64,000 nt of DNA, from contig DAOTZV010000129.1 in NCBI GenBank assembly GCA_034434235.1, positions 24,284 through 88,283 of the forward strand. The letters are read 5' to 3'. Made by a program: the position numbers and the translations under genes. The DNA comes from Anaerolineae bacterium (GTDB taxonomy: Bacteria; Chloroflexota; Anaerolineae; CG2-30-64-16). Positions 1 to 43,175 of this stretch are shown here, piece after piece. Below the pieces are notes generated by a model. It worked only from the letters and a program-made list of their open reading frames with translations. It had not been told where the DNA came from and searched no databases. Every line of letters begins with the position of its first letter. Position 1 is the first letter of the stretch.

Positions 1-648
1 GGCATCTTCGGTCGGGACGGTGCGTTCGCCGAGTATCTGACCCTGCCGTTGCCCAACCTCTACCGCGTGCCGCCGGCCGTGCCGGACGAGCGCGCGGTGT
101 TCACCGAACCGCTCGCCGCGGCGTGCGAGATCCTGGAACAGGTCGCCATCCGGCCGACCGACCGCGTGATCGTGGTGGGGGATGGCCGGCTCGGCTTGCT
201 GGCGGCCGCGGTGCTGCGCCTGACCGGCGCCGACCTGCACCTGGTGGGCCGCCACCCCGAGAAGCTGGCCATCGCGCGCGGGTGGGGGATCGCGACGCAC
301 GAGGGGGCCGACGGCCTCCCCGAGCGCCGGGCCGATGTGGTGGTGGAGTGCACCGGTCGGCCGGCCGGCTTCGAGCTGGCGCGACGGCTGGTGCGGCCGG
401 CCGGCGTGCTGGTGTTGAAGAGCACCTATCACGGCGACGTGACGATCAATCTGGCAAGCCTGGTGGTGGACGAGATCACGCTCGTCGGCTCGCGCTGCGG
501 GCCGTTTGCGGCCGCGCTGCGGCTGCTCGAGGCGGGCCTGGTGGACCCGACCCCGCTGATCGCGGCGCGCTATGGATTGGCGGACGGCGAGGCGGCCTTC
601 GACCTGGCCTTCCATCGAGGGGCGCTGAAGGTTCTGCTGGAGCTTTGA
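1..648 (+). CDS. Zn-dependent alcohol dehydrogenase (MDR superfamily), C-terminal part; 5'-truncated by window edge
   Basis: Reading frame is open from nt 1; the Rossmann segment VIVVGDGRLGLLAAAVLRLTGA and a C-terminal GALKVLLEL are typical of zinc ADH/MDR enzymes. Track ORF 49..648 is the in-window M-start. Confidence 0.8.
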   Translation, partial: GIFGRDGAFAEYLTLPLPNLYRVPPAVPDERAVFTEPLAAACEILEQVAIRPTDRVIVVGDGRLGLLAAAVLRLTGADLHLVGRHPEKLAIARGWGIATHEGADGLPERRADVVVECTGRPAGFELARRLVRPAGVLVLKSTYHGDVTINLASLVVDEITLVGSRCGPFAAALRLLEAGLVDPTPLIAARYGLADGEAAFDLAFHRGALKVLLEL

Positions 649-3725: not shown

Positions 3726-4413
3726 ACGTCGGATCCCGCCCGGGCGCTATTTCTGGGGCCTGGTCCTGCGCTTCTTGATCTGGCTTTTCGTCAGGGTCGA
3801 GATGCGGGGGCTGGAGAACCTCCCGCGGCGCGGTCCCGGCATCATCTATTATAACCACATCCATTGGCTCGACCCGGTCTTGATCAGCGGCAAGCTATCG
3901 CGCTACAACGTCCCTCTCACCAAGATCGAGGCCGCCTCCTGGCCGGTGGTCGGCTTTCTGTTGAAGGGCTATCACGTCATCTTCATCCGCCGCGGCACGG
4001 TGGATCGCCGCGCGTTGACCGCCACCTGGCAGGTGTTGGCCGACGGCGACATCTCCGTCATCTCGCCCGAGGGGACGCGCAGCCCCGACGGGACGCTGAA
4101 GCTGGCCAAAGAGGGGTTGGCCTTTGTCGGCCGCCGCGCGGCCGACGCCTGGTGGATTCCCTGCGCTGTCACCGGCACGCCGAAGTTCCGCTTCTCCATC
4201 CCGCTCATCAAGCGCACGCCGGTGACCCTGACCTTCGGCCGGCCGTTCCGGGTGCGCTGGCCCGAAGCTCAGCCCGAAAGCGCGAGTCGCGAGATGATGC
4301 GCGCGGTCACCGACGAGGCGATGGCCCAGCTTGCCGCGCTCCTGCCGGCCCACATGCGCGGGGACTATGCCGACGCCGATCCATCCCGGCAGCAGTGGAT
4401 CGAGTTTCTGTAA
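3712..4413 (+). CDS. plsC: 1-acyl-sn-glycerol-3-phosphate acyltransferase (PlsC family)
   Basis: HX4D motif NHIHWLDP and PEGTRS motif; N-terminal TM segment; ATG at 3712 overlaps the cmk stop by 14 nt. Confidence 0.8.
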   Translation: MAKRRRRIPPGRYFWGLVLRFLIWLFVRVEMRGLENLPRRGPGIIYYNHIHWLDPVLISGKLSRYNVPLTKIEAASWPVVGFLLKGYHVIFIRRGTVDRRALTATWQVLADGDISVISPEGTRSPDGTLKLAKEGLAFVGRRAADAWWIPCAVTGTPKFRFSIPLIKRTPVTLTFGRPFRVRWPEAQPESASREMMRAVTDEAMAQLAALLPAHMRGDYADADPSRQQWIEFL

Positions 4414-17320: not shown

Positions 17321-17429
17321 ATAAACTGGTGCAAAACCAGGACTTGATTTGGTGCGAATTTGTGATATGATGAATATAGTGTATCCGGTTCATCCGTCCC
17401 ATTGTCACAGCGCAGGAGAGGATTTTGCC

Positions 17430-19334
17430 ATGAAGCAGATGCGGAGGATGCAGAGCGCGCGACCGGCATGGGGGTTGGTGCTGGTGACGTTGGCCTTGCT
17501 GCTCAGCATGATGCCGGGTGCAGCGGCCGCCAGCAGCCCGGCGGGCAGCGGTTCGGTAGCCGGGGTGGTCTTTTTCGACGCCTACGGAGTTGGCTCGGCC
17601 GCCGGTCGGCCGGGCGTGGCCGGAGCGACGGTGCGGCTTGCCGGGTCGGGCGTGGCTCTGACCGCGGCGACCGATGCGGCCGGCGCCTACCTCTTCGCCG
17701 GGTTGGCGGCCGGCAGCTACACGGTGACGGTCGAGCCGCCGACGGGCTATGTGACGACCACCGCCAGCACTCGCGCGGTCTCGGTGACGGGCAGCCCGTT
17801 GACCGGCGTGGACTTCGGCCTGGCATATCCCATCTCGCTGTGGGGCGTCCTGTGTCAGGACCTCAACGGGGACGGCATGTGCGGTCCGGCCACGGCCGAG
17901 CCGCGCATCGCCGACGCCCTGGTGCAGGTGTTCGACGACGCCAATCGCAACGGATTGATTGACCTGGGCGAAGGCGTCGTGGCCAGCACCACTTCCAGCA
18001 GCAAGGGGCTATATCTCCTGTCCGATCTGCGTCCCGGCAGCCGCAACCTGGTCGTCCGCCTGCCGGGCGGCGCGGAGAGCAACAGCGAACCGCTGGTGTT
18101 GGAAAGCGACGAAGCGGGCGCCACGAGCTTCGAGTACAATATGGCCATCGGCCGGGCCACCCTTCAGGGGGTTGTCTTCAACGATGTGAACGGCGACGAA
18201 TTCCCGGATGCAACTGAGCCGCGCATCCGCGGCGCGGTCGTCCAGCTCCTGGCCGCCGCGTCGGGCCAGGTGGTGACGCCCATCACCGTGGTTGCCACGG
18301 CCACCACCGGCGCGGATGGCCGGTACGTGTTCGCCGATGTGCTGGCCGCCACCTATCAGGTGCGGGTCTATTCGGCGCCCGTGCCGCCCGCCTGGTGGCA
18401 AAGCTCCGATCCCTCGGCGCTCCTCCGCACCTTGCCGGCCGGCGTGACCACCACGCTGGACATCGGCTTCTTCGACCCCGCGGCGGCGCCGCCGATGAGC
18501 GTGGCCGATTGGAAGCGCGAGCTGCGCCAGGCCGATCAGTGGGCCTATACCGCGAGCGAAGTCGCGACCTTCAGCGCGGCGGCCGAAGAGATCTCGCGCG
18601 TGTTCTCCGAGACCGTGGCCTTGCGCAATGCGCTCCTGTTGGGCGGCGCGACGGGGATCTCGGGAGCCCAATGGCGGGCTTTGAAGGAGCATGCGGCGCT
18701 CTCGTTGAACATCGCCAGCGGCCGGCTGCGACCCGAGACGATCGTCAACCTGGGTACGCTCTCCACCGCCACCACGGTGCGTCAGGCGCGCGATCAGATC
18801 GAGGCGCTTTTGTTGGCGCCATCGTCGTCTGACGACGACTTCGGGTTGGCGTTTGCCATCGCCCGGTCGCTCAACACGGCCCAGGGGGTGGGGGCGGGAC
18901 GCATGGGCCTGTCGGCCGTCATTGACGCCGTCTATCGCGGCGCGCAGGTGGCGAGCAAGCTCAGGCCCGGCGGCGACATCGTGGATCTGAGGGCCGATGG
19001 GCTGTTGACCCTGCGCAAGTGGAGTGCCGGCTCTTACGGCGCCACGACGAACACGTTGATGCCCAGGATCCGCCTGCGGGTGAAATCGTTCAACGAGGGG
19101 GGCGTCCTCGACGTCGTCCAGGTCTTCCCCGATGGCCGGCGCCTGAAGCTCGGCACCCTGCAGTCGGCGGTGCAGAACCGGGACGTGAACAAGGTCTATC
19201 AGCTCGATCTTGCCCGTGTGACGACGGTCGCCGAGATGGTCAATGCGACCATCGTCTTGACGGTGCGCGATGTGAACGGCGGCAAGCCCGCCTCGGTCAA
19301 GCTGGATAGCGCGGAGATCATTTTCGGCTATTAG
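17430..19334 (+). CDS. Secreted hypothetical protein; N-terminal carboxypeptidase-regulatory-like repeats and an uncharacterised C-terminal domain
   Basis: Signal peptide MKQMRRMQSARPAWGLVLVTLALLLSMMPGAAAA; repeated modules (GVVFFDAYG..., GVVFNDVNGDEFPD...) paralogous to the N-terminus of the S8 peptidase; no catalytic motifs recognised. Confidence 0.6.
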   Translation: MKQMRRMQSARPAWGLVLVTLALLLSMMPGAAAASSPAGSGSVAGVVFFDAYGVGSAAGRPGVAGATVRLAGSGVALTAATDAAGAYLFAGLAAGSYTVTVEPPTGYVTTTASTRAVSVTGSPLTGVDFGLAYPISLWGVLCQDLNGDGMCGPATAEPRIADALVQVFDDANRNGLIDLGEGVVASTTSSSKGLYLLSDLRPGSRNLVVRLPGGAESNSEPLVLESDEAGATSFEYNMAIGRATLQGVVFNDVNGDEFPDATEPRIRGAVVQLLAAASGQVVTPITVVATATTGADGRYVFADVLAATYQVRVYSAPVPPAWWQSSDPSALLRTLPAGVTTTLDIGFFDPAAAPPMSVADWKRELRQADQWAYTASEVATFSAAAEEISRVFSETVALRNALLLGGATGISGAQWRALKEHAALSLNIASGRLRPETIVNLGTLSTATTVRQARDQIEALLLAPSSSDDDFGLAFAIARSLNTAQGVGAGRMGLSAVIDAVYRGAQVASKLRPGGDIVDLRADGLLTLRKWSAGSYGATTNTLMPRIRLRVKSFNEGGVLDVVQVFPDGRRLKLGTLQSAVQNRDVNKVYQLDLARVTTVAEMVNATIVLTVRDVNGGKPASVKLDSAEIIFGY

Positions 19335-19339
19335 GCGGT

Positions 19340-19500
19340 GTGGGGGCGAGATGAATCTCGCCTTACGTAGCGTAGGGCGAGATTGATCTCGCCCTGGATT
19401 CAATCGGGGTGTGGGGGCGAGATGAATCTCGCCCTACATTCTCGCTGGGACCGGATCGGGACGCCCACATCCTCGGTCGAACAGGATGTGGGCGTCCGTT
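19340..19500. repeat. Array of four hairpins: three copies of GGGCGAGAT-NN-ATCTCGCCC (two preceded by GTGTGG) plus a 15-bp perfect stem
   Basis: Read directly at 19345-19362, 19376-19395 and 19414-19433; the long stem GGACGCCCACATCCT/AGGATGTGGGCGTCC is at 19459-19497. It lies between two same-strand genes. Confidence 0.6.
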
Positions 19501-19529
19501 TAAGCAAACACCGGCAGAGGCGAAGCACC

Positions 19530-21746
19530 ATGATGAGATGGTTGCAGTTCTTGCGGCAGCGCGCCGTGTCGAGTTGGCTTGCCGGGGCCGTGCTGGCGTG
19601 GGCATGCGTGGGCATGGCAGGAGCCAGTCCGTGGCGCGCCGCCGTCGCAGATTCCTGGACGATCGCGTGTGTAGAGTGCCCACGGAGCTTCGATGCCCTG
19701 ACCGATCGCAGCCTGCGCCTGTTGCCCGATGGCCGGCCGGCCGTCGCTTACGGGGGAGATCATCTCTATTATGCCTGGCGCGTCGATGTCGGCTGGCAGG
19801 TTCAGGTGGTAGATGAGGCGCCGGCCGTCGGCGGGTCGGCGTCGCTGGCGGTGTCGGCCGCCGGCCGGCCGCACATCGCGTATTACGACGCGCTCAACCG
19901 CGACCTGAAGTACGCGCGGATGGAGGCTGACGGCTGGGCCCGCGAGACCGTGGATGCGACGGGAGATGCGGCCGCGGTGGCGGCGTTGGCGTTGGACCGA
20001 TTCGACCGGCCGCACATCGTCTATTACCGGGACAATGGCGACGGAGCATCGCCGCGGCTGGCGTATGCCCGACGGGGCGATTCGGGGTGGGAGTTCGCCG
20101 TGATCGCCGTATTGACTTCCACGGCGCGCTACATTTCGCTGGCGCTGGACGGCGCCGATCGGCCGCACGTGGCCTATTACGACGAGGGGACGCATCACCT
20201 GCGCTATGCCCGGCTGACCGAGGGCGGCTGGGACGTGCAGGCGGTGGACGGCGACGGCGACGTCGGTTCGGGGTGTTCCCTTGCGCTCGACGCGGCCGGC
20301 CACCCGCACATCAGCTATTACGATTACGACACCGTGCGCGGCGCGCTGCGCTATGCCGCGTGGGACGGCGACGCGACGCATCCCTGGCAGATCGCGGTGG
20401 TGGACGACGCGGACGACGTCGGCGGCTACACCTCGCTGGCGCTGGATCGCCTGGGCCGGCCGGTGATCAGCTATCACGATTACACGCACGGCGCGCTCAA
20501 GCTGGCGCGCGGCGCTGCGGCGCTATCGGCCGGCGCATCCGCCTTCTCCTGGCAGATCGAGACCGTCGAGGACGAGGGGGACGTGGGGCTCTACACGTCT
20601 CTGGCGCTCGACGCTGAGGACCGGCCGCATATCCTGCACTTCGATCTGACCCGCCGGGCGATCCGCTACGCGGGGTGGGAAGGAGATCGCTGGCAGTTCG
20701 CGGAGGTGGATCGCGCCGGCCGCGTCGGCGAGTACACCTCTCTGGCGCGGGATGCGGCCGGCATCCTTCACGTCAGTTACTACGACGTGGATGGCGGACA
20801 TCTGAAGCATGCCCATCGGGCCGGCGCGGGCTGGTCGAGCGAAACGGTGGACGATGCGCCGGGCGCGGGCCTTTACACGAGCCTGGCGCTGGATGGAAAC
20901 GGCGCCGGGCACATCAGCTATCAGGACGGCTACGCGTTGGCCCTGAAGTATGCGTTCCAGACGCCGACCGGCTGGCAGACCGTTACGGTGGACGCCGACG
21001 GCGAGGTGGGCGCGCACACGTCCATCGCCGTGGACGCCGCGGGCCGGCCCCACATCAGCTACTACGACGCGACCGCCCAGGCGGTCAAGCACGCGGCCCG
21101 CGGCGAGACCGGCTGGACGGTCGAGACCGTCGAGCGGGTCGGCCCTCCGACCGCTACGGCCCTGGCGGTGGATGCGACCGGTGCGGTACACGTCGCCTAT
21201 TGTGCGGGCGAAACGGCCGGCGTGCTGCACTATGCCGTGCGCAGCGGAGGCGGATGGCAGATCGAGCCGGTCGACGCGGCGGGCGACATGGGCGGCCGCA
21301 TCGCGTTGGCCCTCGATGCCCAGGCCGCGGCCTATATCAGCTACTACGACTTCGCCGGCCGGCGCGTGCTGCTTGCCCATCGCGGGCCGACCGGCTGGGC
21401 GACGGAGGTCGTGGCCGTCGGGGTCGGCGAGAGCCACACGGCGTTGGCCCTGGATCGCGACGCCGCGCCGGCCGTGGCGTTTTACGACAGCGCGGAGGGC
21501 GCTTTGAAGTTCGGCCGCCGGTCGGCTTCGCGCGCGCGGGGCGTGGCCGGCGTTGCCGCGGGGTGGGACGTCGTGACCGTCTACCGCCAGGGGGATGCCG
21601 GCGCATATCCTTCGCTGCAGTTCGACGCCGCCGGCCGGCCCTGGATCAGCTTCTATGACGCGACGAACGGCGACCTCCTGATCGCCCAGGGCCCCGCCAT
21701 CGCGAGGGCGACCTTCCTCCCGCTCTTGTTGCGCAACGCCCGTTGA
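19530..21746 (+). CDS. Secreted repeat protein: about 13 tandem ~48-aa repeats (consensus ...SLALD..GRPHISYYD.....LKYA...GW....VD..GDVG...), probable beta-propeller
   Basis: Signal-peptide-like N-terminus (MMRWLQFLRQRAVSSWLAGAVLAWACVGMAGA); the repeat periodicity is visible in the translation; no family recognised. Confidence 0.6.
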   Translation: MMRWLQFLRQRAVSSWLAGAVLAWACVGMAGASPWRAAVADSWTIACVECPRSFDALTDRSLRLLPDGRPAVAYGGDHLYYAWRVDVGWQVQVVDEAPAVGGSASLAVSAAGRPHIAYYDALNRDLKYARMEADGWARETVDATGDAAAVAALALDRFDRPHIVYYRDNGDGASPRLAYARRGDSGWEFAVIAVLTSTARYISLALDGADRPHVAYYDEGTHHLRYARLTEGGWDVQAVDGDGDVGSGCSLALDAAGHPHISYYDYDTVRGALRYAAWDGDATHPWQIAVVDDADDVGGYTSLALDRLGRPVISYHDYTHGALKLARGAAALSAGASAFSWQIETVEDEGDVGLYTSLALDAEDRPHILHFDLTRRAIRYAGWEGDRWQFAEVDRAGRVGEYTSLARDAAGILHVSYYDVDGGHLKHAHRAGAGWSSETVDDAPGAGLYTSLALDGNGAGHISYQDGYALALKYAFQTPTGWQTVTVDADGEVGAHTSIAVDAAGRPHISYYDATAQAVKHAARGETGWTVETVERVGPPTATALAVDATGAVHVAYCAGETAGVLHYAVRSGGGWQIEPVDAAGDMGGRIALALDAQAAAYISYYDFAGRRVLLAHRGPTGWATEVVAVGVGESHTALALDRDAAPAVAFYDSAEGALKFGRRSASRARGVAGVAAGWDVVTVYRQGDAGAYPSLQFDAAGRPWISFYDATNGDLLIAQGPAIARATFLPLLLRNAR

Positions 21747-34607: not shown

Positions 34608-34675
34608 GAAGGTGACCCTCCTTATGGGATGGTGATATTTTACACCAAGATCGCCAGCGATTGAAATCCCGTCTC

Positions 34676-34836
34676 GTAGCCGCGCGGCGGCGCGTGAAGC
34701 GCAAGCCGGAGGCTTGCGTTACGGGGCCGATGCCGCGCGGCTCGGCTTGTAGCGGGATACCCGTAGCATAAGCCTCCGGCTTGTAGCCGCGCGGCGGCGC
34801 GTGAAGCGCAAGCCGGAGGCTTGCGTTACGGGGCCG
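34676..34836. repeat. Two copies of a 54-bp direct repeat separated by a 53-bp spacer that contains an inverted copy of the core
   Basis: The repeat GTAGCCGCGCGGCGGCGCGTGAAGCGCAAGCCGGAGGCTTGCGTTACGGGGCCG occurs at 34676-34729 and 34783-34836; each copy carries the hairpin CAAGCC-GGA-GGCTTG; the spacer holds AAGCCTCCGGCTT. Confidence 0.6.
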
Positions 34837-34846
34837 GCGATGCGCG

Positions 34847-37800
34847 TTACTGCGACAGCGTCAGCCGTACGGTCTTGATCTCAAACGGCCGGAAGTCGAG
34901 CGCGATCTGGCCATCGTCGCACGCCAGGTCGGCCACATGCGCCTCCAGCATGTCGGTCAGCGCGGCGCGGCCGACCGGCAGGGTGGTGGACAGGACCGCG
35001 CGCGTCGCCGTGTGCTTCGCCTCATAGAGCCGCACCACCACATCGGCCGAGCCGTCTTCGGCCGGCTTGACCGTCTCGATGATGATATTCGGCGCATCCA
35101 CGCTGAAGAGAGAGCGCTCCCCGCCGTCGCCGGCCGCGGTCGTGGCCGGCACGTTCAGCTCGTAGGCCTCGCGCACGACATCGCTCTCGGCCAGGGGACC
35201 GTTCCAGGCGTAGAAGCTGTAGGTGAAGGTCTGGATCCCTTTGTCGGCCGTCATGTCGGGCGCCAGGGCCGATTTGAGCAGGGTCAGGTTGATCGAGTTG
35301 CCCAGGACGTTGACGCCGTACTTGCTGTCGTTGAGCACCGCGCAACCCCGCGCCTCTTCGGCCAGCGCGGTCCACTTGTGGTTGCACACCTCGAAGCGGT
35401 TGGCGTCGAACGGCCGCGAGTAGTGGTTGGGCCGCCGGATGTGGCCGAACTGGATCTCGTGAATTGCTTCGTTGGCGTGCACGGTGACCGGGAAGGCCAC
35501 CTTGAGGAGCTTGTGGCTTTCGCGCCAGTCCACGGTCGTGGCGAAATCCACCCGTCGGCTGTTGCGGCGCAGGCTGATCACCTGCGTCATGGTCGAGTGG
35601 TGCAGTTGCCGGGTGACGCGCAGCCGCGCTTCGAGCGGCCCCGCGGCCTCCACGACGATCGTCGCCGGCTCGGTCAGTTCCACCGGTGTCTCCGTGTACA
35701 TGCTGTCGATGTCCCAGGCGTCCCACGCGCCCGGCACGTCCTTGTACATCTTGAAGCTGTTGCACGGCCCGGCGGCCAGCTCGCGCTGCGCCTCCTTGTC
35801 GAAGAGGCTGACGATCTCGCCCAGGTCGTTGAACTCGATCCGCAGGCACTCGTTCTCCAGCATGCGCGGGGTCGCCTGCAGGGCATTCGATGTCGCTGCC
35901 GCCCCTGCCCCCCCAAAGTTGGGGGGAACGGAGGGCCACCAGATCGTCGTCCAGCCGCACGACGGCACGGTTACCTCGGCCCAGGCGGCATCGGCTTCGA
36001 CCTGCACCGGCAGCGGCCGGCCCGCGCGGTCGGCCGCCGTCTGCGCGCCGGCCGGCAGGCGCACCAGCGCCCGTCGTGGCCACGAGAGGGAGTTGAACAC
36101 GGTGACGGCCTCGGCCGGCCGCACCAGGGCCGCCTGCGCCTGGCCGGCCGCCCGGCGGGCCGCGGCGATCGCCTCGGCGTGGCTGGCCTCGGCTTCCTCG
36201 TAGACGCGATGGATCGAGGAGCCGGGCAGGATGTCGTGGAACTGGTTCAGCAGGACGGTGCGCCACGCCTCTTCCAGGTCGGCCGCCGGATAGGCGTAGC
36301 CGGGTCCGGCAAGAGCGCGCGCGGCCGCGCCCCACATCTCGGCTTCGCGCAACGCCAGCTCGGCGCGACGGTTGTTCTGCTTGGTCCTGGCCTGCGATGT
36401 GTACGTGCCGCGGTGCGCCTGGAAGTAGAGCTCGCCCACGTAGCGCTCGCGCGGCAGGCCGCGGCGCTCCAGGTCCTTGAAGAATTCGATCGGGGAAGCC
36501 ATCTTCACCCGCGGGAGGCCCTCCAGGTCTTTGGTCCGGCGCAGGAACTCCAGATGGTTGCGGGTGGGGCCGCCGCCGCCGTCGCCGTGGCCGAACGCCA
36601 GCAGGATCGTGCTGATGCCGTCCTTCTGGACGCGCTGGCGCCAGCGTTGCATCAGCGCGTTGGGATCGGTGTAGCTGTTGTAGTCGTTGAAGATGTGGGC
36701 CAGGACGGCGGTGCCGTCGATCCCTTCCCACATGAACGTGTTGTAGGGGAACGGATCGCCGCCGTTGTAGGTCCAAAAGATCTTCTGCGTGGCGAAATAC
36801 TTGATGCCGCAGCCGGCCATGATCTGCGGCAGCGCGCCGGAATAGCCGAACACGTCGGGCAACCAGAGCAGTTCGTTTTCCGCGCCGAACTCCTGTTTGA
36901 AGAAGCGCTTGCCGTGGATGAACTGGCGGATCAGCGCCTCGCCGCCGCTGATGTTGGTGTCGGCCTCGATCCACATGCCGCCTTCGGGGATGATCTTGCC
37001 GGCCTTGACCGCGGCCTTGACCTCCTCGTACTTGGCCGGATAGCGGCGTCGGAGCATCCAGTAGAGGTGCGGCTGGCTCTGGATGAACTTGAACTCGGGG
37101 TATTCCTGCATCAGCGCCAGTTGGGTGCTGATGGTGCGCGCCATCTTGCGCTCGGTCTCCTGGAGCGGCCAGAGCCACGCCACGTCTATGTGCGAATGGC
37201 CGATGGCGAAGAGGGTCGGCGCGGTGCTGCCGTTGACGCATTCGAGGAGCGGCTTGAGCCGCGCCCGCGCCCGGCGCACGGTGGCCAGGAACTCGTCGGG
37301 CGGCAGCTCGGGATCGGCGATCAGCGTGAAGTCCTTCAGGCCGGCGTCTATCTCGGCCACGCGGAGCGAATCGGGGTCGAGCAGGTTGCGGGTCTGGAAC
37401 AGCGTTTCGACGTCGAGCCAGAGCTGATAGACCTCTTCGTTCCAGATGCCGAAGGTGGTTTCGCCGACGGCGGTTTGCGTGGGGGGCGGCTCGGGCACGC
37501 TTTCGCGGCCGTAGCCCACCGGCCCCTTGCCGGCGGTGCGCAGGCCGTGGCCGGCGTAGGCTTCGATCAGAAGCTCGTAGCGGGCGCCCGGCGCGCCGCT
37601 CATGGCCAGGGTGATCTCGGTGTGCTCGCGGTCAATTGCGCCGGCCAGCCGGCCGTTGATCCACACCGCGCTTTCGCCGCCCGGGTTGGCCCGCAATACG
37701 ATGCGTTGGCCGGCCGCGGAAGGCGGCAGGACGATCTCGCCCTTGAACCAGCCGTATTCCCACTTGGCGCCCCAGCGGGTGCCGACCGGCATCGGCGCGA

Positions 37801-41168: not shown

Positions 41169-43175
41169 TTACTGGATCTCGACCTCCCCACACCGGATCT
41201 GGCCCGGCGCGCCGGGCGCTTCGAGGATGAGCCGATAGGTTCCGCGCGGGGTCACGGGGTTCAGGTTGACGTCGTGATGGCTGCGCACGATCTCGCCGGC
41301 CACCCAGCGGTCGGCCGGCCAGAGGCCGAACGCGTCGTTCGGCCGGGCCATGCTCTCGCCCCACACCTGGCCCTGCGCGTCCACCAGCCGGAAGCGCGGG
41401 CGGAGCTCGCCGGCGGCCGGCCGGTCGCCGGGCCGCCAGTAGCTCGTTACGTGGATCCATGCGCTCGGCGGATGGAACAGGTCGTCGCGCGGGCGCAAGG
41501 CGGCCGGATCATACAGACAGGCCAACGGCTGCACGCCGTCCAGGGCCGGCCAATCGCTGCGAGACGGCACGTTCGACGGCAGGTCGGCCAGCCGATAGCG
41601 CTGGTCGTAGACGTGGATGGCGATCCCCGGCGGGAATACCTCGGTGATCAGCGGATAGCGCGCGGCGAACCAGCCCAACACCACGTTGTTCGGGTCCAGC
41701 TCCTGATGGTGCGACTGTACCACCCACACCGCGTCGAAGGGGGCCAGCCCCGCCAGCGGCCCCTCCACCTGGTCCGCATCGCGGATCCGGTCGGTGAACG
41801 GGACGAAGATGTCCTGCGGGCCGCGGAAGTAGCGCCGGAACGCGATCTGGACGTAGTCGGGCTGGATCAGGATGGCGTCATGGGGGCCGGCGTGCGCCTG
41901 CACGAACGCCGCGGCCTCGCGCCATGCCTCGCGGCGATTCTGCGGCGCCCAATCGTAGGGCAGCGCGGCCGCCGTCGTCGCGAAGATCAGGCCGGCCGCC
42001 GCCAACCCGACCGGCCGGCGCCAGGCCCACAGCCGGTCGAGCGCCCGGCCCAGCGCCACGCAGAGCGCCGGCGCCAGGGCGATCTGGTAGCGCGTTTCGG
42101 CGAAGGTGCGGCTGTCGCGGCTCAGCAGGGCGCCGCCGATCAGGATCACGACGAGCGGCCAGATGAGGATGTAGAGTCCGCCACTTCGCCGGTTGCCGCG
42201 ATCGGCCGGCAGGAAGCAGCCGAGGAGGGCCAGCGCTCCCATCCCCGCGGCCAGGATCGTCGTCAGGCGGGCGTCCCATGCGGGCCAGCCGAGCGTGTAG
42301 GCCCTCAGCATCGTCGCGAGGGGCGCCCACATTCCCTCGAACGGCCGACCCGGTACGGCCTCGGCACCGCTCACCCGCCACGCCGACCAGGCCAGCGGCA
42401 GGAAGAGCACTGCGGCGATGCCCAGGCCCAGGACGCCCAGCCAGAAATCGCGATCCGCGTCCCGTTCGCCCCGCCGCGTCCAGCGCGCCATCAGCAGCCA
42501 GAGCCCGGCCACCGGCAGCAGGAAGGCACTGTAGAGATAGCTGTAGAGCGCGGCCGCGAAGCCGCCGCTGAGCAACAGCAGGGCGAGCGAGGACGGCCCC
42601 CCCCTCCCCCCAACTTTGGGGGGCGCCCCCCCTTCCCCCCAATCTTGGGGGGCCAGGGGGGCGGCCCCCCCCTCCCCCCCAATGTTGGGGGGCCAGGGGC
42701 GCGGGGGCGTGCGCCATGCGCCATGCGCCGCCCGCAGGAGGCCGTAAAGCCCCACCAGCGCGAAGGCCGTCGCCGGCATGAACATGCGCGCTTCCTGGCT
42801 ATACCACACCAGGAACGGGTTGATCGCCAGCAGGAGCGCGGCGAACGCGGCCCCGCGTGGCCCGCTCAGCCGCCGGCCGATTCCGTAGAGCGGCAACACG
42901 GCCAGCGCGCCGATCAGCGCGCCGAGGGAACGCACGGCCAGATCGCTCCCGCCGACCAGCGCCGTCCAGCCGTGCAGCAGGAGGTAATAGAGCGGCGGGT
43001 GCTTGTCCTGGACGAGCGCCATGCCCACGCGCCAGATCTCGCCGGCCGGCCGACCGGCCCAGTACGTACTGACGACCTCGTCGAACCACAGGCTATGGTA
43101 CGTGAGATGGTAGAAGCGCACGCCGAGCGCCAGGACCAGGATCCAGCTCAGCGGATGGCACAGTAATCGCCTCAT
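41169..43175 (-). CDS. Membrane glycosyltransferase, family 39 / PMT-ArnT-like (dolichyl-phosphate-mannose-protein mannosyltransferase superfamily)
   Basis: N-terminal multi-TM region with the family-typical WFDEVVSTYWAG...DKHPPLYYLL, and a large C-terminal soluble domain. It contains a low-complexity Pro/Gly insertion encoded by the repeat at 42596-42716. Confidence 0.7.
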   Translation of the reverse strand: MRRLLCHPLSWILVLALGVRFYHLTYHSLWFDEVVSTYWAGRPAGEIWRVGMALVQDKHPPLYYLLLHGWTALVGGSDLAVRSLGALIGALAVLPLYGIGRRLSGPRGAAFAALLLAINPFLVWYSQEARMFMPATAFALVGLYGLLRAAHGAWRTPPRPWPPNIGGEGGAAPLAPQDWGEGGAPPKVGGRGGPSSLALLLLSGGFAAALYSYLYSAFLLPVAGLWLLMARWTRRGERDADRDFWLGVLGLGIAAVLFLPLAWSAWRVSGAEAVPGRPFEGMWAPLATMLRAYTLGWPAWDARLTTILAAGMGALALLGCFLPADRGNRRSGGLYILIWPLVVILIGGALLSRDSRTFAETRYQIALAPALCVALGRALDRLWAWRRPVGLAAAGLIFATTAAALPYDWAPQNRREAWREAAAFVQAHAGPHDAILIQPDYVQIAFRRYFRGPQDIFVPFTDRIRDADQVEGPLAGLAPFDAVWVVQSHHQELDPNNVVLGWFAARYPLITEVFPPGIAIHVYDQRYRLADLPSNVPSRSDWPALDGVQPLACLYDPAALRPRDDLFHPPSAWIHVTSYWRPGDRPAAGELRPRFRLVDAQGQVWGESMARPNDAFGLWPADRWVAGEIVRSHHDVNLNPVTPRGTYRLILEAPGAPGQIRCGEVEIQ
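42596..42716. repeat. Three tandem copies of a palindromic G/C-run element (C7-8 T C6-7 / AAYNTT / G6) inside the GT39 coding sequence
   Basis: Read directly: CCCCCCCCTCCCCCC-AACTTT-GGGGGG, CCCCCCCTTCCCCCC-AATCTT-GGGGGG, CCCCCCCCTCCCCCCC-AATGTT-GGGGGG. Translated on the gene strand as ...PPNIGGEGGAAPLAPQDWGEGGAPPKVGGRGG.... Confidence 0.7.

Follow-up and report, generated by a model that had tools for sequence, protein, structure and literature searches.

A probable GTAG-tagged REP trimer lies beside a separate conserved hairpin in a spacer between two secreted-protein genes of an Anaerolineae bacterium

Introduction

Four hairpins are crowded into the spacer between two secreted-protein genes in the 64-kb stretch of Anaerolineae DNA analyzed here (hereafter the window, with a G+C content of ∼66%), raising the questions of whether they constitute one element and of what kind. 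A sequence-only reading of the locus had described them as a single array and had offered three candidates, i.e., a REP/BIME-like cluster, a site of mRNA stability or processing, or a small structured RNA. We consider it likely that a GTAG-tagged REP trimer of BIME/REPIN-like form accounts for the three small hairpins and that the fourth hairpin is a separate conserved RNA stem; the source genome contributes to the REP assignment a single cluster in the 64-kb window, and the dispersed copies and RAYT-like genes come from other genomes.

REPs are non-autonomous hairpin DNA repeats. In the accepted model of their mobilization, single-stranded DNA is recognized by a Y1 HUH transposase, and the RAYT/TnpA_REP tyrosine (HUH) transposases recognize the single-stranded stem-loop along with a GTAG guide tetranucleotide. 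The repeats normally are lineage-specific, and it is unusual for a REP core to be nearly identical in different phyla; to our knowledge, they have been studied almost solely in Proteobacteria. The Pseudomonas REP core GTAGGAGCGAG... resembles GTAGGGGCGAG.... In Escherichia coli, stop-proximal REPs interfere with translation termination, and the intercistronic REP of malE-malF acts as a stabilizer.

A super-family of GTAG-tagged REPs was described by Di Nocera, De Gregorio & Rocco in 2013 (PMC3733652). Its members have stems of 6 to 13 bp and loops of 2 to 4 nt, include the tag variants GTGG and GTAA, and occur as singletons, HH, TT, or HT dimers, trimers, and clusters (PMC3733652). Sub-families differ by complementary changes in the stem, some families are common to distant organisms, and between unidirectional genes the elements tend to lie on the 3' side of the upstream ORF (PMC3733652). 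In Chloroflexi, clustered GTAG-23 elements were found in Thermomicrobium roseum, and REPtrons also were described (PMC3733652).

Results

Anatomy of the three small hairpins

All four hairpins were confirmed at the places where the sequence-only reading had put them, within a spacer of 195 nt (its estimate was ∼190 bp) between two genes that both lie on the + strand and whose translations begin with signal-peptide-like N-termini (Table 1). The downstream BNR_4 protein has close and distant homologues, one of them in an Anaerolineae MAG. A consensus scan of positions 19000-19900 detected neither a hairpin followed by a T-run nor a sigma-70-like promoter, in agreement with the earlier statement that the hairpins are not classic intrinsic terminators, and no Rfam family reached its gathering threshold in the whole 64-kb window.

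The motif GGCGAGAT-NN-ATCTCGCC, allowing up to two mismatches, occurs three times in the window compared to 0.08 expected, and none of 100 shuffled sequences reached three. The copies form a single cluster, with none elsewhere in the window at that threshold. Their stems are perfect over 8, 10, and 9 bp around 2-nt centers, and the outermost pair of copy 1 is imperfect (GGGCGAGAT / ATCTCGCCt). As RNA, each small hairpin closes on a 4-nt loop with a folding energy of -14 to -17.5 kcal/mol (z ∼ -4.4 to -4.9 versus shuffled controls). GTAG precedes copy 2, CTAC follows copy 3, and TTAC follows copy 1; the copies therefore are tagged and alternate in orientation (- + - when the tag is read 5'), with unit spacings of 31 and 40 nt. 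The sequence GTGTGG, correctly noted before two of the hairpins, lies 5' of copies 1 and 3 (19338-43 and 19409-14). This flank pairs with the CTACA flank by wobble or in degenerate form; in units 1 and 3 it resembles a second tag that is degenerate, with GTGG in place of GTAG.

Because the orientation alternates, neighboring units pair into REPIN-like hairpins with arms of 23 to 24 nt. Units 1 and 2 form an inverted repeat with 24-nt arms (19344-67/19371-94, 92% complementary), a 3-nt spacer, and the tags inside; as one long RNA hairpin, this pair has a folding energy of -45.4 kcal/mol (z -10.9). Units 2 and 3 form a second inverted repeat with 23-nt arms (19372-94/19415-37, 96% complementary), a 20-nt spacer, and the tags outside. 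The first REP stem begins 10 nt past the upstream stop codon, and the cluster is on the same strand as both genes, so it probably is transcribed with the upstream gene.

Table 1. Positions of the flanking genes and of the four hairpins in the window
Feature	Coordinates	Strand	Details
TAG stop codon of the upstream SdrD_B/CarboxypepD_reg secreted-protein gene (17349-19334)	19332..19334	+	
Assigned REP unit 1, hairpin GGCGAGAT-ga-ATCTCGCC at 19345-19362	19337..19366	-	Motif copy 19345-62; perfect stem 19345-52/19355-62; degenerate minus-strand tag GTAA (= TTAC, 19363-66)
Assigned REP unit 2, 10-bp stem AGGGCGAGAT-tg-ATCTCGCCCT (19374-95)	19372..19395	+	Motif copy 19376-93; perfect stem 19374-83/19386-95; GTAG tag (19372-75) overlaps the stem
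Assigned REP unit 3, hairpin GGGCGAGAT-ga-ATCTCGCCC at 19415-34	19408..19437	-	Motif copy 19416-33; perfect stem 19415-23/19426-34; minus-strand GTAG tag (CTAC, 19434-37)
Conserved 15-bp-stem hairpin (GGACGCCCACATCCT / AGGATGTGGGCGTCC), non-REP	19459..19497	+	Perfect stem 19459-73/19483-97
BNR_4 repeat-protein gene, downstream	19530..21746	+	Start fixed by same-length homologues (738 aa)

A dispersed family of tagged hairpins

When the motif search that had been proposed was carried beyond the locus, one genome per species was scanned for GGGCGAGATNNATCTCGCCC and metagenomes were scanned for the tagged form GTARGGCGAGATNNATCTCGCCC; each scan yielded at least 118 loci. Of the loci fetched, more than 230, representing six phyla or more, contained the same tagged hairpin. 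Among the matches listed, the family consensus is GTAG-GGGCGAGAT-AT-ATCTCGCCC-CTAC, and GTA(G)/(C)TAC flanks accompany 73 of 108 genome matches with a non-CG loop, versus 1 of 16 with a CG loop. Tagged matches fell within crude gene calls in 20% of cases, versus 81% of random positions and 88% of the CG-loop matches; the latter, being untagged and in coding sequence, look like chance occurrences. Many family copies carry the tag on both sides, which yields a perfect palindrome of 26 to 28 nt. Among the neighboring variants with exactly two substitutions relative to the consensus, 20 of 30 showed mirrored Watson-Crick compensation (e.g., GGACGAGAT..ATCTCGTCC and GGGCGTGAT..ATCACGCCC), compared to ∼2% by chance according to a rough estimate. 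These compensatory changes indicate that the hairpin, and not the sequence alone, is maintained.

Singletons account for 216 of the 252 sites in the fetched loci, and the other 36 are clusters of 2 to 10 units. Within clusters, the start-to-start spacing has modes of 30 to 34 and 40 to 44 nt, and both spacings of the window fall within them. Tandem arrays with a single orientation also are present at other loci of the family.

The hosts of tagged matches, named from record titles with MAG taxonomy as deposited and thus possibly including binning errors, comprise Anaerolineae and other Chloroflexota; Actinomycetota (Gaiellaceae, an Eggerthellaceae MAG, and others); Bacteroidota, including Rhodothermales and Alistipes; Verrucomicrobiota; Victivallales; Krumholzibacteriota; and Gamma- and Betaproteobacteria. 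Several genomes hold multiple loci, with at least 10 in the Gaiellaceae MAG CAWAOK01, at least 14 in the Eggerthellaceae MAG CAZFGW01, and at least 9 in Bacteroidota GS28. The G+C content of motif-bearing metagenome contigs ranged from 34% to 72%. A collection of 2.9 million viral contigs contained one match to the motif, a plasmid collection contained no match to the cluster, and a text search of the literature with the motif gave nothing but unrelated matches of the primer type.

The core also was seen inside longer repeats. At two loci of the Eggerthellaceae MAG CAZFGW01 (L017, 1487-2010, and L071, 669-1540), GGGCGAGAT/GGACGAGAT hairpins form the core of a tandem-array unit of ∼111 to 140 nt with GATGTTG...CAACATC flanks in place of GTAG; this long unit may be a composite, MITE-like derivative. 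In contigs of one metagenome (FWPU01; L131, L133, L143, L154-L156, L179, L182, L184, L190, L195, L196, and L207), the tagged hairpin is embedded in a longer conserved repeat, GCGCCACGGCCCATGAAAAT-[REP]-GACCCGATTTTCAGG, and often occupies contig extremities; this position suggests an element of high copy number at which assemblies break.

Transposase-like genes near family members

All ORFs of the window and of the fetched loci (∼1.5 Mb scanned in all) were searched with jackhmmer by using E. coli TnpA_REP, whose seed sequence agrees with PDB 4ER8, and the protein of locus L023 as seeds. Neither seed identified a RAYT gene in the 64-kb window. Seven Y1_Tnp ORFs were found in six fetched loci. 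Four of these ORFs (those of L201, L023, and L217, plus one copy in L031) were compared with NCBIfam, and for each the best match was NF047646, the REP-associated tyrosine transposase, with scores of 45 to 75 bits that lie under the equivalog cut-off of 80. In L201 (1-770), four copies of a sister REP, GTAGGGGCGTAT-tgc-ATACGCCCCTA, enclose the RAYT-like gene (78-614, minus strand) in a REPtron arrangement, and a GGGCGAGAT REP is located at 4238-4260, 3.6 kb from that gene. Since the two types share this contig, several REP classes coexist on it. Locus L142 contains many GTAG-tagged hairpins of differing sequence, the GGGCGAGAT type included, beside a RAYT remnant. No RAYT-like gene in the fetched loci is flanked on both sides by exactly the GGGCGAGAT REP. 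The occurrence of RAYT-like genes near family members supports a link between the family and tyrosine transposases.

Two of the RAYT-like Y1_Tnp genes contain a tagged hairpin in frame. In L023 (5913-6845, +), cGTAGGGGCGAGATgcATCTCGCCC encodes ..RRRGEMHLAR.. just before the WHRNYYE motif, and in L217 (6509-7069, -), GTAGGGACGGGGcttgcCCCCGTCC encodes ..GGKPRPY.. after the HUH motif.

Comparison of orthologous spacers

The gene order S8 protease, SdrD_B protein, and BNR_4 protein was retained in all loci fetched for this comparison. Three units were present in L121 and L160, two assemblies of essentially one strain. A near-identical sequence, L122 (JGI 3300014149), had four; alignment showed the extra unit CGTAGGGCGAGATGAATCTCGCCTTACGTGA to be a clean 31-nt insertion. 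The assemblies in which this difference was seen were made from short metagenome reads, and tandem repeats can be mis-assembled from such reads. The small hairpins were absent from the orthologous spacers of L119 (84% amino acid identity), L120 (68%), L241 (64%), and L243 and L247 (both 58%), and the large hairpin was retained in all of these relatives. Judged from these alignments, the REP cluster is a recent insertion relative to the orthologous spacers.

Because the relatives that lack the REPs still keep the large hairpin, the described array of four resolves into two things that differ in age and kind: the 15-bp stem is single-copy and conserved where no REPs are found. The REP/BIME-like interpretation thus is supported for the three small hairpins, on the basis of their tags, alternation, dispersal, extragenic bias, compensatory changes, and polymorphism in both presence and unit number, and failed for the 15-bp stem. 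The sequence-only reading also had stated that it would be refuted if the motif occurred only at this locus and was not conserved in relatives; the motif is indeed unconserved at the orthologous site, but is abundant elsewhere.

Two or more hairpins occupy this spacer in all lineages, each of which has its own extra hairpin or repeat. In L247 (2605-3000), for example, ∼350 nt of other repeats (of the CATTGCGAGCG...GAAGCAATC type, with large inverted copies) separate the conserved hairpin from the BNR_4 gene. Because the extra hairpin or repeat differs in every lineage, the spacer looks like an insertion hot spot.

The fourth hairpin

The fourth hairpin has a perfect 15-bp stem and a 9-nt loop, with a folding energy of -32.6 kcal/mol (z -6.8). 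It was found in every orthologous locus examined, once per locus, and was confined to that site. Its 8-bp core, CGCCCACA/TGTGGGCG, is invariant among relatives, whereas its distal stem covaries, with 4 of 15 pairs altered on both sides yet still paired. The loop length is variable, and the invariant half-sites are 15 to 17 nt apart among relatives. A duplex DNA operator is unlikely given that this distance varies and the intervening bases remain paired; the invariant core, the covarying distal pairs, and the variable loop and half-site distance fit a hairpin that acts single-stranded.

The hairpin is followed only by GTTTAAG, with no U-tract. Its end lies 32 nt from the BNR_4 ATG in the window and 29 to 44 nt away in five of six lineages, L247 with its inserted repeats being the other one. 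This interval leaves no room for a promoter, so the hairpin should lie inside any BNR_4 transcript. From these sequence features, this vertically inherited RNA stem, which would be older than the REP insertion, is most likely an intercistronic attenuator or 3'-end stabilizer. In that role it would set the expression ratio of the flanking genes, and it probably tunes the expression of the two secreted-protein genes.

Discussion

Alternative explanations

Three observations also would be expected of a purely local minisatellite, in which a chance hairpin unit was amplified by replication slippage with no relation to a mobile family or a transposase: the 64 kb hold one cluster only, the strains differ by a clean 31-nt unit, and the window has no RAYT. 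We nevertheless regard this explanation as improbable, since the same 20-nt core with its GTAG/CTAC tags recurs at hundreds of unrelated sites in many genomes and slippage alone does not produce units of alternating orientation.

A second possibility treats all four hairpins as the terminator region of the upstream gene, built from stacked factor-independent terminators without U-tracts as in high-G+C bacteria. The stems are strong, they are situated directly 3' of the stop codon, and the presence of two or more hairpins in the spacer of every lineage also is in keeping with such a function. The terminator scan was empty, however, and the small hairpins are dispensable in relatives and part of a dispersed family. 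Moreover, complete termination is impossible, because the BNR_4 start is too near the last hairpin for an independent promoter. As an account of the whole, this explanation has a quite small probability; it is a partial rival only, since it allows both a secondary role of the REPs and the function that we propose for the fourth hairpin.

Three perfect 20-bp palindromes, 31 and 40 bp apart and upstream of a gene, could be an operator array that binds a dimeric transcription factor controlling the BNR_4 gene. Such an array would not be expected to be missing from the orthologous spacer of all relatives despite the conserved gene pair, to vary in copy number among strains, or to be scattered across phyla in unrelated contexts. 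The compensatory pair changes preserve the hairpin and not a sequence that a protein would read, and no promoter-like site was detected in the region. The operator explanation is largely refuted, and we assign it a very low probability.

The small structured RNA suggested at the outset fared no better. A permissive Rfam scan of 19250-19600 did give a full-length model match to Acido-1 (RF01686) over 19372-19435, i.e., units 2 and 3, with E = 0.032. A non-coding or cis-regulatory RNA of two or three hairpins, such as an Acido-1 relative, is highly unlikely, however: the score of 22.3 bits falls short of the gathering score (50), the likeness extends only to two G+C-rich hairpins and a short linker with differing stem sequences, no Rfam family matched at gathering thresholds, the units are unconserved at the orthologous site, and units elsewhere mostly are single. 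A CRISPR-like array was rejected because the spacers are 11 to 20 nt long and the units alternate in orientation.

Origin and possible effects of the REP cluster

For the preferred reading, a REP trimer beside an unrelated conserved stem, we propose that a REP element reached the site either through RAYT-mediated single-strand transposition or through recombination with another copy, and that the array may then have expanded or contracted by slipped-strand or unequal exchange between units. At the 3' end of the upstream message, the REPs would be very stable hairpins and might have a protective effect, an attenuating effect, or an effect on translation termination; they could shield that message from 3' exonucleases or add attenuation before BNR_4. 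An mRNA stability or processing site, another of the original candidates, is plausible as such a local consequence. Any local effect of the REPs is non-essential, because the relatives do without them.

Relation to described REP systems

Each defining trait of the GTAG-tagged super-family (PMC3733652) that can be checked within the window is present. The shared features are the G+C-rich stem with a terminal tag, the cluster near the 3' end of an upstream ORF, and the complementary stem changes. In the text and supplements of that paper, taken apart from its consensus-sequence figure, the GGGCGAGAT/ATCTCGCCC stem does not appear. Compared to the described GTAG families, the spread observed here (at least six phyla and contigs of 34 to 72% G+C) is wider than most.

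The window hairpins resemble the REP/BIME elements of E. coli in their tags, alternating orientation, and regular spacing, and the presence of RAYT-like genes in loci that carry the tagged-hairpin family parallels the E. coli TnpA_REP system (RAYT; PDB 4ER8). The E. coli REPs differ in having bulged, longer stems and species-specific sequence, and the window has no RAYT. Like the REPINs of Pseudomonas fluorescens (Bertels & Rainey 2011, PMC3116915), which consist of two inverted REPs separated by a few to ∼20 nt, neighboring units can form one long hairpin; unlike in REPINs, doublets do not dominate, given the prevalence of singletons in the fetched loci. By analogy with malE-malF, hairpins that separate two genes of one strand could shield the message of the first gene and reduce expression of the second. 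We propose this parallel for the REPs as well as for the conserved hairpin, although the latter is not a repeat.

Significance

The locus is of an ordinary kind, apart from a few curious details. We read its conspicuous array of hairpins as a recent selfish-repeat insertion and not as a conserved regulator, and one truly conserved intercistronic hairpin has been told apart from it. That an almost invariant REP core is so widely spread phylogenetically might be the one aspect worth more work. We suggest, tentatively and with considerable doubt, that GTA(G)-GGGCGAGAT-NN-ATCTCGCCC-(C)TAC is an unusually cosmopolitan REP class that either spreads from phylum to phylum along with a RAYT-like transposase or is held constant by a conserved recognition requirement of the host or transposase. 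A REP class with the same core across Chloroflexota, Actinomycetota, Bacteroidota, the PVC group, and others would help to trace the spread of REPs and RAYTs, would serve as a strain-typing marker through its three-versus-four-unit polymorphism, and would explain some contig breaks in metagenome assemblies.

Other repeats in the window

A second palindromic family, CCCCCCAA-NN-TTGGGGGG, occurs four times in the window (0 expected), at 35909-35926, 42606-42623, 42635-42652, and 42675-42692. All copies are within minus-strand ORFs: one is in a GH38 alpha-mannosidase, between the middle and C-terminal domains, and the remaining three are in a PMT_2 glycosyltransferase, where they occupy a G/C-rich stretch just past the Pfam match. 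All four resemble intragenic insertions of a REP-like kind. Two near-identical direct repeats of ∼55 nt, 107 nt apart, lie at 34660-34840 in the intergenic gap 34608-34846, and each contains a hairpin with an 8-bp stem (...GTAGCCGCGCGGCGGCGCGTGAAGCGCAAGCC-gga-GGCTTGCGTTACGGGGCCG). Finally, the hairpin GGGCGCACG-gc-CGTGCGCCC at 714-733 has the same GGGCG...CGCCC architecture and resembles the GTAG-GGGCGCA...TGCGCCC-CTAC hairpin of locus L136, which sits beside GGCGAGAT REPs.
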